This document shows, piece by piece, positions 4,269 to 10,240 of a stretch of 12,346 nt of DNA. Positions within the stretch are counted from its first letter, which is position 1. Each line of letters opens with the position of its first letter. Under the pieces are notes generated by a model. It searched no databases, had not been told where the DNA came from, and saw nothing but the letters and a program-made list of their open reading frames with translations. Origin of the DNA: a virus; UHGV virus genome UHGV-0322540; one strand, given 5' to 3'. Both the position numbers and the translations under genes were made by a program.

Positions 4269-4294
<26 letters not shown>

Positions 4295-4814
4295 TCAGCA
4301 ACCCCGGTATCAGTTCATCCAGCGCGGCTGCTTTGTTCATGGCTTTGATGATATCCCGTTTCAGGAAATCAACATGTCGGTTTTCCAGTTCCGGAAAACG
4401 CCGCTGCACCGACAGGGGGATCCCGTCGAGAATACTGGCAATTTCACCTGCGATCCGCGACAACACGAAAGTACAGAATGCGGTTTCCACCACTTCAGCG
4501 GAGTCTCTGGCATTCTTCAGTTCCTGTGCGTCGGCCTGCGCACGCGTAAGTCGATGGCGTTCGTACTCAATAGTCCCTGGCTGGAGATCTGCCTCGCTGG
4601 CCTGCCGCAGTTCTTCAACCTCCCGGCGCAGCTTTTCGTTCTCAATTTCAGCATCCCTTTCGGCATACCATTTTATGACGGCGGCAGAGTCATAAAGCAC
4701 CTCATTACCCTTGCCACCGCCTCGCAGAACGGGCATTCCCTGTTCCTGCCAGTTCTGAATGGTACGGATACTCGCGCCGAAAATGTCAGCCAGCTGCTTT
4801 TTGTTGACTTCCAT
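4269..4814 (-). CDS. nu1: Terminase small subunit Nu1
   Basis: 181-aa ORF MEVNKKQLADIFGASIRTIQNWQEQGMPVLRGGGKGNEVLYDSAAVIKWYAERDAEIENEKLRREVEEL..., recognised as lambda Nu1. Lies immediately beside cosB. Confidence 0.96.
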
Positions 4815-4953: not shown

Positions 4954-4992
4954 TTAAACCGGAAAATTTTCATAAATAGCGAAAACCCGCGA

Positions 4993-5004
4993 GGTCGCCG
5001 CCCC
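4993..5004. other. cosN: 12-nt cohesive-end site (AGGTCGCCGCCC here, complement of lambda GGGCGGCGACCT); cosQ-side sequence follows to about 5060
   Basis: Exact 12-mer of the lambda cohesive end, flanked on one side by ...CGCGGGTTTTCG (lambda left end) and on the other by CGTAACCTGTCGGATC... (lambda right end), both in reverse complement. Confidence 0.9.
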
Positions 5005-5202: not shown

Positions 5203-5436
5203 ATGTCAACGAAGAACAGAACCCGCAGAACAACAACCCGCAACATCCGCTTTCCTAACCAAATGATTGAACAAATTAACATCGCTCTTGAGCAAAAAGG
5301 GTCTGGGAATTTCTCAGCCTGGGTCATTGAAGCCTGCCGCCGGAGACTGTGCTCAGAAAAAAGAGTTTCGCCTGAAGCAAACAAAGAAAAGAGTGACATT
5401 ACTGAATTGCTCAGAAAACAGGTTAGACCAGATTGA
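5203..5436 (+). CDS. Small ribbon-helix-helix (Arc/MetJ-type) DNA-binding protein, YlcI/YnfO-like (DUF3950-like)
   Basis: 77-aa ORF with a GGGG Shine-Dalgarno about 9 nt upstream. The segment RNIRFPNQMIEQINIALEQKGSGNFSAWVIEACRRRL fits the RHH pattern (strand, helix A, G-x-N turn, helix B), comparable to Arc FNLRWPREVLDLVRKVAEENGRSVNSEIYQRVMESF. Family name is from memory of small proteins next to Nu1 homologues in E. coli cryptic prophages. Confidence 0.6.
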   Translation: MSTKNRTRRTTTRNIRFPNQMIEQINIALEQKGSGNFSAWVIEACRRRLCSEKRVSPEANKEKSDITELLRKQVRPD

Positions 5437-5492
5437 AGCAATTTAGATAATCGTGCAGACTACGCCCCTCATATCACATGGAAGGTACTACA

Positions 5493-5903
5493 ATGGCTCA
5501 GGTTGCCATTTTTAAACAAATATTCGATAAAGTGCGAAATAATTTAAACTATCACTGGTTTTATTCTGAACTAAAACGTCACAATGTCTCACATTACATT
5601 TACTATTTAGCCACAGAGAATATTCATCTTGTTCTTGAAAACGATAATACGGTTTTAATAAAAGGACAGGGTAAGGTTGTAAATGTAAGATTTTCAAAAA
5701 ATAAATGCCTTATAGAAGCCACCTTAAAAGGATTCAAATCAGGAGAGTTATCATTTTACGAATACAGAAAAAATCTTGCTACAGCAGGGGTTTTCAGATG
5801 GATTACAAATATCCACGAAAACAAAAGGTATTACTATACCTTTGATAATTCATTACTCTTTACTGAGAACATTCAGAACACTACACAAATATTTCCGCAC
5901 TAA
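5493..5903 (+). CDS. DUF1398-like protein (YbcV/YdfO-like), function unknown
   Basis: ORF track gives 5478..5903, but the second ATG at 5493 has a GGAAGG Shine-Dalgarno about 9 nt upstream, giving 136 aa ([42 protein letters not shown]...). Strongly AT-rich compared with neighbours. Resemblance to YbcV/YdfO is from memory only. Confidence 0.62.
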
Positions 5904-6252
5904 ATCATAACGTCCGGTTTCTTCCGTGCCAGAACCGGACTCGCTGGCATGATGAAATATGTGTACCCGGTAACCCCGGTGTGCATCGTTTTTGATTATT
6001 CCCGCACACTCGCGCAGAAGGAGTTCCCCGTCGGGCTACGGTCTCTGTTAATACGGGAATACGGCGACGATACAGCGCATGATGTGTCAGGCTTGAATGC
6101 CTTTATCCGTTAAAAGGGATATCAGTTAAGTTATCCCGTGCAGGGTATAAGCCATTATCAAGCCCACCCGTAGATGGGCTTTGTAATGGATAGCCGTTGC
6201 TCAGTTCTAGTAATGCTTTGATTTTTTCGATAACGCAGTTTTGCGTTTGCCA

Positions 6253-6774
6253 TCAGCACGCGATATCGAGAGTCAACTGCAGTTGCTCGCGCCAGTACTC
6301 AACATTTGCTTCAATAACCGGCTTATCCCATCGCCAGCGAGCCATCTCTCTTGCCCCATTGCTGGCTTTTGATTTCCGGTCATCGCGAATGCGACATGCT
6401 TGCTCATATTTCTGCTGCTCAGTCAGTTCACCGCGAAGCAGACTATCAATGTGCAGGTCGCACCACACAGCAAAACGAGCATCACACCAACGGGCAAATG
6501 CAACTGAAAGTTTTGGATGTAGCCACGTACCACCACCCCTGTCCTTTCGTGCCTTGCTGGTTTTTACATACCTCGATTGTGAGGGATGTAAAATTTGAGA
6601 TTCTTTCCCGGTCAACGCTTCGTCTAAAGCACGAACGTATTCAAGCGTTTCTGCCAAACGCATCCAGTTATCAATGCGTTTCCCAAATCTCTCAGCAACA
6701 CCTGTGACGTTGATCCAACCATCAGTGTTGAAACTGACAATTTCACCTTTGTAATTAAGTGGCACGATATTCAT
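6253..6774 (-). CDS. KilA-N domain (APSES-type DNA-binding) protein
   Basis: 173-aa ORF MNIVPLNYKGEIVSFNTDGWINVTGVAERFGKRIDNWMRLAETLEYVRALDE...GGGTWLHPKLSVAFARWCDARFAVWCD..., showing the characteristic KilA-N core (tW.hP.La..FA.W). AGGTAA Shine-Dalgarno-like sequence about 7 nt upstream. Same strand as, and downstream of, the lysis genes. Confidence 0.68.
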   Translation of the reverse strand: MNIVPLNYKGEIVSFNTDGWINVTGVAERFGKRIDNWMRLAETLEYVRALDEALTGKESQILHPSQSRYVKTSKARKDRGGGTWLHPKLSVAFARWCDARFAVWCDLHIDSLLRGELTEQQKYEQACRIRDDRKSKASNGAREMARWRWDKPVIEANVEYWREQLQLTLDIAC

Positions 6775-6889
6775 AACGTTTACCTACCATTTGAAATGAA
6801 CCTTTGCCGCACAGGAAACCAGCCCACCGAGGCTCGCCAGCACTAACTGGTATCCTCAAAGGCCCATTCCAAAGGGGCAGGTTCGGTGT

Positions 6890-6917
6890 AAAAAAAAACA
6901 TGCGTTGCGGTACGCAT
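6890..6917 (-). terminator. Candidate intrinsic terminator between Rz and the KilA-N gene
   Basis: On the minus strand: 6-bp stem ATGCGT / ACGCAT (6917-6912 and 6905-6900) with a 6-nt loop, then G and a run of nine T (6898-6890). Stem is short, so strength is uncertain. Confidence 0.45.
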
Positions 6918-6979
6918 TTATTGCAAAAAAGCCCCGCATCGCGAGGCTCATTAAATGGACTTTGTGATTTGCAAAAAAA

Positions 6980-7417
6980 TTATTTCAGACATTGCGTCCT
7001 GATGTACTCCTGCAGGTAGTTAACCTGCGCGGTTATCCTGTCGATTCCACTTCGGAGACGGTAATAATTGAGTTCAGCATCTGCTGTAAGTCTTGGGCTT
7101 TCTCCATCGCCCATGCTGCTGGCTCCGGTCTTTGACTTTGCACAGGAGGCGGCGACTTGCAGCCGCTTACGCCCAGCAGAAACATCATCACGGAGACTTT
7201 CGATAGTCGCGTTAGCATCAGCAAGTTCCTTTGTATATCTGGCATCGAGTTCTGCTACGTCACGTTGACGCTTCTGCATGTCAGCGATGATGGATGTGGC
7301 TTTGTCGCGCTGTTCTTTGTAGGTCATGGCGTTATCACGGTAATGATTAACAGCCCATGACAGGCAGACGATGATGCAGATAACCAGAGCGGAGATAATC
7401 GCAGTTACTCTGCTCAT
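6980..7417 (-). CDS. Rz: Rz, inner-membrane spanin (i-spanin)
   Basis: ORF track begins at MGAAMSRV...; from the internal Met the N-terminus [30 protein letters not shown] matches lambda Rz as recalled. That start (7417) overlaps the endolysin stop in an ATGA arrangement. About 145 aa with an N-terminal transmembrane segment and coiled-coil-like remainder. Confidence 0.9.
7033..7218 (-). CDS. Rz1: Rz1, outer-membrane lipoprotein spanin (o-spanin), embedded in Rz in the +1 frame
   Basis: ORF 7033..7245 lies entirely inside Rz in another frame. It contains a lipoprotein signal (..[19 protein letters not shown]|[14 protein letters not shown]..) with lipobox V-S-G-C and a proline-rich mature part typical of Rz1. 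The start at 7218 is my choice of Met and is uncertain. Confidence 0.75.
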
Positions 7418-7917
7418 TGCTGCCCCCACAAACAGACTTCACGCTCAATCTCACGGCGAGTCATCAGCCCTTTCCATTGCTTACCGCCAGCATATGTCCA
7501 GCGACGTAGCTGATCACATGCGCCTTTGATATCGCCCTGGTTTATTTTGCGAAGAAGCGTCGATGTTCTGAAATTGCCAGCACCCACGTTGTAAACGAAT
7601 GAGTAAAGAGCGCCGCGCGTTGTTTCCGGTATATCGACTTTGATGTACGGGTTAATTTGTCTGGCGACCGTGGCAAGGTCTTTATTCAGGAGGGCTTTGC
7701 ATTCTGCTTCGGTATACGTTTTACCGAGCATGATGTCTTTTCCGGTGTGCCCGTGGCATACAGTCCATACACCAACAATATCTTTGTATGGTATGTAGCT
7801 GACACCTTCCAGACCATCGTTACCACTCGGTCCAGTGATTAACACAGATGCTATAGCAATAGCCCCGCCACTTATCGCCGCTATTACGCTATTTCGTAGT
7901 GCCGGTGACATTGCCAT
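7414..7917 (-). CDS. R: SAR endolysin (T4-lysozyme-like muramidase, glycoside hydrolase family 24 type), phage-21 R-like
   Basis: 167-aa [62 protein letters not shown]... The N-terminal Gly/Ala-rich weakly hydrophobic segment is a signal-anchor-release domain, followed by an E...D...T catalytic arrangement. Closely resembles the phage 21 endolysin as I recall it; it is not the lambda R transglycosylase. Confidence 0.9.
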
Positions 7918-8092
7918 TCAATCTGTCCTCGCGCTCTTTGCGCTTGTAGTACCAGTTGATGCCAAATGTGCCGACAGTACAAAGAATACCAATGATGACA
8001 GCCCAGTCATTCAGGGAGAGAATGCCACCCATCGCAGTCAGTCCTCCGAAGCTGTAACTGAACCATTCTCTGATTTTGTCCATACGGTACAT
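7889..8092 (-). CDS. S: Class II holin, pinholin-like, with dual start (MYRM)
   Basis: 67-aa [60 protein letters not shown]... with two predicted transmembrane segments (the first Gly-rich) and a charged C-terminal tail. Two in-frame Met codons (8092 and 8083) are separated by a basic residue. It overlaps the endolysin start by 29 nt and is paired with a SAR endolysin. Confidence 0.82.
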
Positions 8093-8498
8093 GCTCTACC
8101 CCTTCATTGAGGGGATTTGCTCTATTTAATTAGGAATAAGGTCGATTACTGATAGAACAAATCCAGGCTACTGTGTTTAGTAATCAGATTTGTTCGTGAC
8201 CGATATGCACGGGCAAAACGGCAGGAGGTTGTTAGCGCGACCTCCTTCCACCCGCTTTCACGAAGATCATATGTAGAAGGCCGCAGCGTAACTATCACTG
8301 ATGAATTCAGGATAGCCAGTGGCTACGGCTCAGTTTGGGTCGTGCTGTTGCTGGGCGGCGATGACGTCTGTACGCATTTGGTGATCCGGTTCTGCTTCCG
8401 GTACTCGCTTAATTCAGCACAACGGAAAGAGCACTGGCTAACCAGGCTCGCCGACTCTTCACGATTATCGACTCAATGCTCTTACCTGTTGTACAGAT

Positions 8499-8556
8499 AT
8501 AAAAAATCCCGAAACCGTTATGCAGGCTCTAACTATTACCTGCGAACTGTTTCGGG
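8499..8556 (-). terminator. tR' intrinsic terminator (3' end of the 6S RNA)
   Basis: On the minus strand: stem CCCGAAAC (8556-8549) / GTTTCGGG (8515-8508) with an internally paired loop, then A and a T-run (8506-8499). Matches the lambda tR' region GGGATTTTTTATATCTG as recalled. Confidence 0.75.
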
Positions 8557-8693
8557 ATTGCATTTTGCAGACCTCTCAGCCTGCGATGGTTGGAGTTCCA
8601 GACGATACGTCGAAGTGACCAACTAGGCGGAATCGGTAGTAAGCGCCGCCTCTTTTTATCTCACTACCACAACGAGCGAATTAACCCATCGTT
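8499..8693 (-). ncRNA. 6S RNA: short pR'-initiated leader transcript ending at tR' (substrate for Q antitermination)
   Basis: Distance from the predicted pR' start (about 8693) to the tR' T-tract (about 8499) is about 195 nt, consistent with the roughly 194-nt lambda 6S RNA. Sequence is lambda-like throughout. Ends are approximate. Confidence 0.6.
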
Positions 8694-8699
8694 GGGTCA

Positions 8700-8728
8700 A
8701 ATTTACCCAACTTTATTCAAAAAGTCAA
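8700..8728 (-). promoter_or_regulatory. Late promoter pR' with overlapping qut site
   Basis: On the minus strand: -35 TTGACT (8728-8723), 17-bp spacer, -10 TAAATT (8705-8700), followed by the initial transcribed sequence ...TGACCCAACGATGGG... carrying the -10-like pause element. Matches the lambda pR'/qut arrangement as recalled, immediately downstream of Q. Confidence 0.65.
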
Positions 8729-8770
8729 TATCATGCCGTTAATATGTTGCCATCCGTGGCAATCATGCTG

Positions 8771-9394
8771 CTAACGTGTGACCGTATTCAAAATGCTGTC
8801 TGCGATTGACTCTTCTTTGTGGCATTGCACCACCAGAGCGTCATACAGCGGCTTAACAGTGCGTGACCAGGTGGGTTGAGTAAGGTTTGGGATTAGCATC
8901 GTCACAGCGCGATATGCTGCGCTTGCTGGCATCCTTGAATAGCCGACGCCTTTGCATCTTCCGCACTCTTTCTCGACAACTCTCCCCCACTGCTCTGTTT
9001 TGGCTATATCAACCGCACGGCCTGTACCGTGGCAATCTCTGCATCTTGCGCCCGGCGTAGCGGCACTACGGCAATAATCCGCATAAGCAAATGTTGCGAG
9101 CACTTGCAGTACCTTTGCCTTAGTATTTCCTTCAAGCTTTGCCACGCCACGGTATTTCCCCGATACCTTGTGTGCAAATTGCATCAGATAGTTGATAGCC
9201 TTTTGTTTGTCGTTCTGGCTGAGTTCATGCTTACCGCAGAATGCAGCCATTCCGAATCCGGCTTGTGATTGCGCCATCCCCATAGCAGCCATCACATCAG
9301 TACCGGAAAGGGAGTCAGAAGCCGTGGCCCGTGGTGAGTCGCTCATCATCGGGCTTTTTGGCGAATGAAATTTAGCTACGCTTTCGAGTCTCAT
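8771..9394 (-). CDS. Q: Late-gene antiterminator Q (lambda type)
   Basis: 207-aa [86 protein letters not shown]..., recognised as lambda Q (same length) with its Cys-rich zinc-binding region (CRDCHGTG...CGRCKG). Confidence 0.96.
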
Positions 9395-10056
9395 GCGCCT
9401 TCTCCCTGTACCTGAATCAATGTGAGGTTTCCGCAGAACACTGCTCCGGTATCGATATACATTTGGTTGGCAAACTTGAGTGGTTTCACTGCTGGCGTAT
9501 GACCAAAGATGAACGTGTCCGCTCCTTTGATTTCTTTTACGATCCCGTCTTGTGAGTTGCTGATTCGTTCGCGGTTCCAGATTACCTGCTGATGATCAAC
9601 TGGCTTTCCAAACTCGTATTCGTCACAAGGATAATCGGCGTGGCAGATGACATATTTTTTACCTTTGCTCACCAGTTCAATGATTAACGGAAGTTCATCT
9701 GCTTTATGGGCAAGAGCTTTAGCCAGAATTTCTTTGTCGTAATCGAGATTAAAGAACCAGCCACCGCCATTAAACAGCCAGTGATTGACGTTTCCACGCT
9801 CTGATAAGCCCTCAATCATCATTTGCTCATGGTTTCCACGTACAGCTCGGAACCAGGGGAATGTGATTAAATCCAGACATTCGACGTTCTCTGTACCGCG
9901 ATCGACCAAATCGCCAACCGAGATAAGCAGGTCTTTTTTGGTGTCAAATCCTATCGTCTCCAGTTTTTTCATCAGGTTCGTGTAGCATCCGTGCAGATCG
10001 CCAACTACCCAAATATTTCGGTATTTGCTGCCATCAATTCTTTCGTAATAGCGCAT
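9391..10056 (-). CDS. Ser/Thr protein phosphatase (lambda PPase, NinI/orf221)
   Basis: ORF track starts at 10131, but the true start is most likely [29 protein letters not shown]... at 10056, giving 221 aa with a GGAG Shine-Dalgarno upstream. Contains the GDLHG, GDLVDRG and GNHE metallophosphatase motifs. ATGA overlap with the Q start. Confidence 0.94.
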
Positions 10057-10240
10057 CTCTTTCACTCCATCCGCGATGAACCATGAGAACGTCGTTGACG
10101 ATGGCGTGCATTTTCCCGTCTTTATCATCAACGTATTTTCTGACCGTGCCGCGACTACATTTCAGTCTGCGTGCTACTTCTGTCTGGTTTCCGTATGCTT
10201 CAACGAGCATGTCTGGAATGGTTTTTACTGAGAACGTCAT
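10034..10240 (-). CDS. ninH: NinH
   Basis: 68-aa [61 protein letters not shown]..., recognised as lambda NinH (same length, helix-turn-helix-like). Confidence 0.88.

Follow-up and report, generated by a model that had tools for sequence, protein, structure and literature searches.

A KilA-N/ORF11CD3 protein gene as probable late-operon cargo behind a shared and structured leader in enterobacterial temperate phages

In the window, by which we mean the whole 12,346-nucleotide stretch of viral DNA analysed here (UHGV virus genome UHGV-0322540), the minus-strand gene at 6253-6774 reads from its sequence as the payload of a cassette, in which a terminator after the spanin gene Rz, a small hairpin (P0), a hairpin of ~85 nt, a Shine-Dalgarno (SD) sequence and ATG at a fixed distance, the cargo gene and a 3' hairpin follow one another in that order. 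We think it probable that this gene encodes a late-expressed, dispensable DNA-binding-type protein of the Bro network, pairing a KilA-N domain with an ORF11CD3 domain and carried as exchangeable cargo behind a structured leader. The gene itself is already known and has an ordinary distribution; the structured leader that stands ahead of different cargos is the more interesting item, and published accounts cover it only in part. Among the accessory genes of phages, those for Bro-network proteins (KilA-N, Rha, P22_AR_N and others) rank with the most common, with a function known for almost none of them, and the window presents genes of this network as swappable cargo that follows the lysis genes behind a shared leader.

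The gene runs from ATG to TGA and encodes 173 amino acids, a call that draws on the list of open reading frames, Pfam, homologues and dN/dS. An in-frame TAG four codons 5' of the ATG rules out a longer N-terminus, and a Shine-Dalgarno region, GGUAGGU (6782-6788, minus strand), lies 7 nt 5' of the ATG, with AGGT at 6782-6785 and with AGG conserved at this position throughout the leader alignment. Measured against an Enterobacter homologue of 86% nucleotide identity, dN/dS is 0.057, which points to purifying selection, and the two-domain layout of the protein is kept in 704 homologues from Enterobacterales and Pseudomonas recovered by a database search. These two results bear out the open reading frame of the original prediction and argue for a real coding gene. 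The same prediction had assigned the protein to the KilA-N family, and here too the profile search agrees: Pfam PF04383 matches residues 7-114 (6433-6756, minus strand) at E=8.2e-22, scoring 77.5 bits where the cut-off is 23.8 and covering profile positions 4-106 of 107.

The C-terminal part, which the prediction had set aside as matching nothing recognisable, has to be read differently, as its last ~55 residues appear to be a divergent ORF11CD3 domain, a standard partner of KilA-N. Several comparisons converge on this ORF11CD3-like helical hairpin (residues ~117-169; 6268-6426, minus strand). PF10549 scores 19.5 bits on the isolated C-terminus and 16.2 bits on the whole protein, both below the cut-off of 25, and is among the database's precomputed matches for near-identical homologues of the protein. 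In the PhiR49_1 protein the ORF11CD3 domain is unmistakable (50.5 bits), and residues 68-160 of that protein align by BLASTP (E=7e-11) with residues 81-169 of the 173-aa protein. When a profile built from 34 homologues was aligned by hhalign with a profile of the PhiR49_1-type proteins, which we call KilA-N-ORF11CD3 type 2, the match had a probability of 99.2% (E=1.3e-19) over 154 columns and reached the C-terminus.

The fold of the 173-aa protein is predicted with high confidence, with an APSES-like alpha/beta DNA-binding fold and C-terminal helices at 116-137 and 141-172. The KilA-N/APSES-type N-terminal domain would presumably bind DNA, and the ORF11CD3 hairpin presumably mediates dimerisation or binding of a partner. 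A search of the PDB returned no sequence homologue at E≤10. Neither PADLOC nor NCBIfam assigned the protein to an informative family, PADLOC giving only a weak match over the KilA-N part, to PDC-S22, a candidate family (E=1.2e-5). KilA-N and ORF11CD3 have been placed with ANT, AntA, P22_AR_N and P22_AR_C in one domain-shuffling network (PMC10111431); a literature search for what KilA-N proteins do when encoded in late operons gave no specific result.

The window comes from a lambdoid phage or prophage whose late genes run on the minus strand. The gene lies in the late operon where it had been predicted to lie, between the spanins and cos and co-oriented with the late genes. On the minus strand, the Q gene (8771-9394) is followed by a candidate late promoter pR' (TTGACT-17-TAAATT; 8700-8728), located by a consensus scan 43 nt 3' of the Q stop codon, and in HK544 the annotated PR'/qut stands at an equal distance from the Q gene. 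The holin gene (7889-8092), the lysozyme gene (7414-7917) and the Rz i-spanin gene (6980-7429; Pfam Phage_lysis, E=9e-36) come next on the same strand, Rz being the last lysis gene 5' of the cassette and carrying Rz1 (7033-7245, minus strand) embedded within it. On the other side, cosN (4992-5003, minus strand) is an exact match to the lambda cohesive end, GGGCGGCGACCT, with Nu1 (4269-4814) 3' of it and then terminase A, W and the portal gene. A convergent opposite-strand module (5203-6113, plus strand), identified with Pfam and NCBIfam, belongs to the context and lies outside the cassette; it comprises a YlcI/YnfO-like gene with DUF3950 (5203-5436), a YbcV-like gene with DUF1398 (5478-5903) and a 54-aa open reading frame (5949-6113), all on the plus strand, and is common to lambda and PhiR49_1. 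A search for tRNA or tmRNA found none.

Lambda, which the prediction had described as having no same-strand gene between Rz and cos, has no characterised gene of that kind there, as claimed, but does have one annotated hypothetical open reading frame: in the corresponding stretch of its genome, bor and a YbcV-like gene lie on the opposite strand and this 68-aa frame on the late strand. The cassette occupies the place of lambda's bor, and truncated copies of the gene, of 96 and 102 aa, are found at some related loci. Because lambda has bor there instead and some copies are truncated, the gene at 6253-6774 would appear to be dispensable.

Nor is the gene the unusual insertion for which it had been taken; it is instead common and annotated, in a variable slot that was already known and that P22 rha also occupies. 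A 901-bp query (6100-7000) is 100% identical to the chromosome of E. coli C2, where it belongs to a prophage and where the annotation gives an identical protein as WP_001028465.1, "KilA-N domain-containing protein", and at least 80% of the 6100-7000 interval is present in ~140 of 5426 complete E. coli genomes. Orthologues at the same position, which the prediction had proposed to look for, do exist: the same gene directly follows Rz, behind the same terminator and leader, in ev099 (99% identical DNA) and in HK544 (gp62, YP_007151669.1) and Emek (97%), although the packaging modules downstream in HK544 and Emek are of the HK97 type or of other types and not the lambda cos/Nu1 module. Homologues in Pseudomonas are placed elsewhere, those of P. 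aeruginosa (54% identity) lying in the early region, next to an S24 CI-like repressor, and those of the P. putida type (58% identity) lying between the tail K/NlpC-P60 genes and gpJ. Because the Pseudomonas homologues occupy these other genome positions, late placement is not a trait of the family. We also considered whether the leader travels with the protein family and rejected this idea, as nhmmer found no leader near the Pseudomonas homologues.

What stands between Rz and the gene bears on when the gene would be expressed. An intrinsic terminator follows Rz (6925-6947, minus strand), with a GCCUCGC-GAU-GCGGGGC stem and U6 in the minimum-free-energy fold, and the annotations of HK544 and ES18 list this element as a rho-independent terminator. 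It is conserved 5' of the leader in P22, O111 and ES18, and a Hafnia phage has a different hairpin and T-run instead. The small hairpin P0 is itself followed by U9 in this lineage, in the manner of a second terminator, with the T-run absent in most other lineages; one or two intrinsic terminator hairpins thus separate Rz from the gene. On the minus strand of 6775-6979, a simple scan, which weak or non-sigma-70 sites can escape, found no sigma-70-like promoter. Compared with a classical moron, then, the gene has no sigma-70-like promoter of its own found by this simple scan, and the hairpin downstream of it (6152-6189) has no U-tract on the late strand.

In lambda, Q-modified polymerase reads through intrinsic terminators, and since it passes terminators of this kind the cargo should be made only late. 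Late, Q-dependent expression of the gene can reasonably be inferred from this arrangement of the sequence: transcription would come solely from Q-antiterminated polymerase that started at pR' and read through the terminator or terminators, and the protein would be made late, alongside the lysis and packaging proteins. P22 rha is likewise described as belonging to the late operon (PMC4936722).

The leader extends over ~130 nt in total, 3' of the post-Rz terminator. Its first element is P0 (AUGCGU-ACCGCA-ACGCAU; 6890-6917, minus strand), recognised by a terminator scan and by covariation, with CG in 80 and UA in 12 sequences at columns 11/20 of its stem; RNAalifold places the hairpin proper at 6900-6917. 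A long hairpin follows (6790-6873, minus strand; RNAalifold and pair counts), built of 16 pairs in P1, 9 in P2 and 5 in the apical stem. With scans for a conserved core we gathered 155 good copies of the leader, 94 of them distinct, from IMG/VR contigs and ~25 Enterobacterales species. Across the 94 distinct sequences and the 34 pairs formed by P0 and the 30-pair long hairpin, 99.6% of cells are paired. Double compensatory changes occur in 7 pairs, against 2.7±0.7 in shuffles (0 of 500 reaching 7) and at most 4 pairs in slid controls, with one position, for example, being U-A in 67 and C-G in 26 sequences and another U-A in 81, G-C in 9 and C-G in 2. Covariation above both controls points to a structured RNA. 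The fold is specific to the late-strand transcript, since several of its G·U pairs would turn into A·C mismatches if the opposite strand were transcribed.

The apical ~22 nt of the leader, including GUUAGUGCUGGCGAGCC, are invariant in copies that were mostly gathered by an exact core word. Because the scans of IMG/VR and of species genomes needed such a word (a 22-mer and a 17-mer), this invariance is partly by construction; 10 copies obtained by blastn, which carries no core-word requirement, also keep the apical region. Among 5426 complete E. coli genomes, 836 carry the leader, and a single genome may have as many as 5 copies. Rfam returned nothing for the whole window at gathering thresholds, and for 6100-7050 at E≤10 it gave chance-level matches only (rimP leader, E=2; isrJ, E=3.4; a lncRNA) that leave the leader hairpin uncovered. 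Two further ideas about the leader were tried and set aside. The SD is predicted to be paired in 99% of leaders, with a pairing probability of 0.97; since this probability remains at 0.86 when the upstream region is shuffled and at 0.79 when a conserved upstream CC is changed to AA, specific occlusion of the SD by this CC was not counted as evidence. A coding role, as an N-terminal extension or a small open reading frame, was rejected as well: most leaders lack the ATG of the 48-aa frame at 6755-6901, and substitutions in the stems are compensatory.

A full-text literature search with the leader core sequence matched a single report, on P22 (Noncoding RNA 2026;12:21, PMC13397905), which describes P22F as an 89-nt sncRNA that was validated by RT-PCR, is abundant in the cytosol and in vesicles during P22 infection and ends 6 nt from the rha ATG, and which gives its function as unknown. 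The leader in the window is 99% identical to that of P22 over 99 nt, and the homologue of P22F here is 6781-6868, where it immediately precedes the start codon of the cargo. The report on P22F treats it as a small RNA of a single phage, and accumulation of the RNA is known for P22 only (PMC13397905); the covarying structure, the fixed spacing to the ATG and the association with many cargo classes are results of the present analysis. The leader may determine how the cargo mRNA is processed, how stable it is or how it is translated, the candidate roles being processing, stabilisation and translational gating. The accumulating RNA could also be a structure-protected decay fragment that has no regulatory role. 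As one leader precedes several cargos in phages as tractable as P22 and HK544, it offers an experimental handle on late expression.

The interchange of cargo is directly visible in the comparison of genomes, where ~100 nt 5' of the ATG are nearly identical ahead of unrelated genes. The slot, with this leader ahead of it, is taken by P22 rha, Stx2-1717 gp49 and ES18 gp79. The leader precedes Rha cargo in P22, ES18, an O111 prophage and a Hafnia phage, KilA-N type 2 cargo in PhiR49_1 and Stx2-1717 and, in Klebsiella phage RothC, an HNH endonuclease. Classed by Pfam, the cargos comprise Phage_pRha, KilA-N (two types), HNH_3, T5orf172/MUG113 and P22_AR_N+ORF11CD3, and a direct comparison of the 173-aa protein with the O111 Rha cargo detected no similarity. 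In 148 of 155 copies the leader core is followed at 71-74 nt by the ATG of an open reading frame. An Rz-like frame lies just 5' of the leader in 94 of 140, and one locus, L046, carries leader-HNH and leader-Rha units in tandem.

Relative to PhiR49_1 the difference is confined to 6193-6769, with homology ending at the ATG and restarting at 6192, at the 3' hairpin. This conserved boundary hairpin (CCAUUA-CA-AAGCCCA-loop-UGGGCUU-GA-UAAUGG; 6152-6189, minus strand) stands 3' of KilA-N type 1, KilA-N type 2 and Rha cargo in 55 copies at fetched loci, and C-to-T variants in its 5' arm preserve G·U pairing. The flanks of the cargo are up to 99-100% identical among phages of E. coli and Salmonella (P22, HK544, Stx phages) and 86-90% identical in more distant hosts, and in both sets the cargo differs.

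These observations admit a broader reading, which we offer tentatively as a possibility: that leader and 3' hairpin bracket payloads of Bro-network and homing-endonuclease type in a previously unrecognised cassette system of enterobacterial temperate phages, the leader being a new class of cis-regulatory or processing RNA that would restrict the translation of potentially toxic genes to Q-antiterminated late transcripts, for instance as a gate processed by RNase III or RNase E.

Other readings differ in what they would have the payload do. It is unlikely, in our estimation, that the protein is a late antirepressor or cross-talk factor, which would bind and inactivate the repressors of heteroimmune co-resident prophages, or bind their operators, so that lytic growth of this phage would induce or sabotage them, in line with the role that the prediction had proposed against co-resident or superinfecting phages. 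In its favour, heterologous repressors are inactivated by P22 Ant, other phages have a P22_AR_N+ORF11CD3 protein in this slot behind the leader, RefSeq gives the rha gene of P22, which lies there too, the label "anti-repressor", and the domain-shuffling network described above joins KilA-N and ORF11CD3 to ANT, AntA, P22_AR_N and P22_AR_C. The label on Rha, however, is an annotation; repressor binding has been shown for no KilA-N+ORF11CD3 protein, and the slot also houses nuclease-type genes (HNH and T5orf172), which are not antirepressors.

Those nuclease-type genes speak rather for a selfish mobile cargo, in which gene, leader and 3' hairpin would spread by recombination in the flanks or by homing-like events with little benefit to the phage, the leader mainly limiting cost through low expression. 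Six unrelated classes of N-terminal domain, including HNH_3 and the GIY-YIG-like T5orf172, lie within the same flanks, which are near-identical across phages while the cargo differs; cassettes occur in tandem (L046), some copies of the gene are truncated, and the protein family is also found at unrelated genome positions in Pseudomonas phages. T4-like phages, moreover, carry free-standing homing endonuclease genes in operons behind hairpins that sequester the ribosome-binding site. Even so, we give this reading a low probability: the dN/dS of 0.057 and a two-domain architecture maintained over 704 homologues indicate a selected protein function, and we know of no catalytic residues in KilA-N.

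We regard it as quite improbable that the gene serves prophage defence in the lysogen, by abortive infection or superinfection exclusion, in the manner of BstA, a protein of ~300 aa whose gene lies close to the repressor, genes of this type being expressed in lysogens. The resemblance lies in the KilA-N-like N-terminal domain of BstA, an Abi protein in which this domain (residues 32-147) is followed by a separate conserved C-terminal region (bioRxiv 10.1101/2020.07.13.199331), and in the weak PADLOC match to PDC-S22 (E=1.2e-5). Against this, the protein has only 173 aa and ends in ORF11CD3 with the BstA-type C-terminal region absent, its gene follows Rz among the late genes, with one or two terminators ahead of it and no promoter detectable by the simple scan, and PADLOC matched no named defence family, PDC-S22 being its only hit. 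Least of all do we credit a non-functional remnant or mis-called open reading frame, which the truncated copies of 96 and 102 aa at related loci might suggest and which the intact frame, the good SD, the dN/dS of 0.057, the high-confidence fold prediction and hundreds of full-length homologues already disfavour.

The reading that we prefer, of a late-expressed and dispensable cargo protein, can be set beside several named systems. KilA-N-ORF11CD3 type 2 proteins (PhiR49_1 XSB42956.1, Stx2-1717 gp49, HK620 p38) share the architecture, the slot and the leader of the 173-aa protein and are ~24-28% identical to it, with the 99.2% probability of the profile-profile match extending across both domains; their genes are followed by an extra overlapping 85-aa open reading frame, which is absent here. 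P1 KilA, which is lethal when expressed, and the fungal APSES factors Mbp1 and Swi4 differ from the 173-aa protein in their C-terminal parts, Mbp1 being a eukaryotic transcription factor.

P22/phi80 Rha (P22 ORF201, ES18 gp79) provides the only known precedent at the slot. It shares the post-spanin position in the late operon and a leader of 99% identity, and some Rha-type cargo bears the same ORF11CD3 C-terminal domain, whereas the N-terminal domain of Rha is Phage_pRha, of winged-helix type, and not KilA-N, with no detectable similarity to the 173-aa protein. The rha gene is described as dispensable and its product as detrimental to lytic phage growth in hosts deficient in IHF (PMC4936722). 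An IHF site in 6775-6990 would be a candidate explanation of this link, and none was found in that interval; a perfect IHF motif, WATCAANNNNTTR, is present at 6211-6223, in a window whose overall count of such motifs is at chance level (13 vs 10.1).

On the minus strand directly 5' of the KilA-N/ORF11CD3 gene, the cargo gene of the window, lies a structured leader (6781-6917) made up of a small first hairpin, P0, and a hairpin of ~85 nt in which compensatory base changes are present. The leader, which has no Rfam entry, is a homologue of P22F, the 89-nt sncRNA upstream of rha in phage P22 (PMC13397905), and is common to at least six unrelated classes of cargo gene, with a constant spacing between leader and ATG. 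In P22 itself (L005, NC_002371.2), the annotated start codon of rha (ORF201, 1546-2151) falls inside the conserved leader, and 23 codons further downstream comes the ATG with which the start codons of all other cargo genes align. The N-terminal extension annotated for P22 rha is probably wrong; the P22F paper likewise takes the downstream ATG as its reference point (PMC13397905).

The T-run 3' of P0 (6890-6898, minus strand) is between five and nine residues long (T5 to T9) in E. coli copies that hardly differ in the rest of their sequence; it is missing from the majority of those in Salmonella and Enterobacter. Because of this variation in length and these absences, the apparent second terminator formed by P0 and the T-run is, on sequence comparison, confined to some lineages, and the homopolymer beneath it may be readily altered in length.

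Two IMG/VR contigs (L046 and L032) carry two leader copies in the same orientation ~2 kb apart, and the order in L046, in which a leader-HNH endonuclease unit is followed by a leader-Rha unit, indicates that cassettes can be stacked. In Klebsiella phage RothC (L008, 1460-2104), the leader and its HNH_3 endonuclease cargo precede the lysis genes instead of following Rz; they have tRNA-Ile/tRNA-Arg genes on one side and the holin gene on the other. Homologues of the KilA-N/ORF11CD3 protein in Pseudomonas prophages (L178-L183) share 54-58% identity with it. In P. aeruginosa they adjoin the S24 CI-like repressor, and in P. putida-type phages they are flanked by the tail K-like genes on one side and gpJ on the other; the enterobacterial leader was found at none of these loci.

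At the 3' side, several cargo classes are followed by a conserved boundary hairpin (CCAUUA..AAGCCCA-loop-UGGGCUU..UAAUGG, 6152-6189, minus strand). Variants with T in place of C still form G·U pairs in the late-strand RNA, where a U-tract is absent; read from the opposite strand, the hairpin could weakly terminate transcription of the convergent ybcV-like module. A perfect match to the IHF consensus (AATCAAAGCATTA, 6211-6223, minus strand) lies after the stop codon of the KilA-N gene and before this hairpin, and is worth recording because Rha, at the same slot, has an IHF-linked phenotype; across the whole window the motif occurs at chance level, so the match may be fortuitous. Among the IMG/VR loci, a short sequence absent from the window, GGTGATCCGATCTTGCTGACGGGTAAGCCGTAAGT, turns up repeatedly in the 3' flanks of cargo genes of the KilA-N type 1, Rha and T5orf172 classes. 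The stretch downstream of P22 rha corresponds to a second reported sncRNA, P22G.

Elsewhere in the window, the ~680-bp interval between Q and the holin gene (8093-8770) holds a pR'-like promoter (8700-8728, minus strand) and no convincing gene; in Stx phages, the same interval carries tRNAs and toxin genes. The Ser/Thr phosphatase (NinI-like) ORF (9391-10131, minus strand) is listed as starting at an upstream TTG. The 666-bp length of its HK544 homologue suggests that an internal ATG is the true start.
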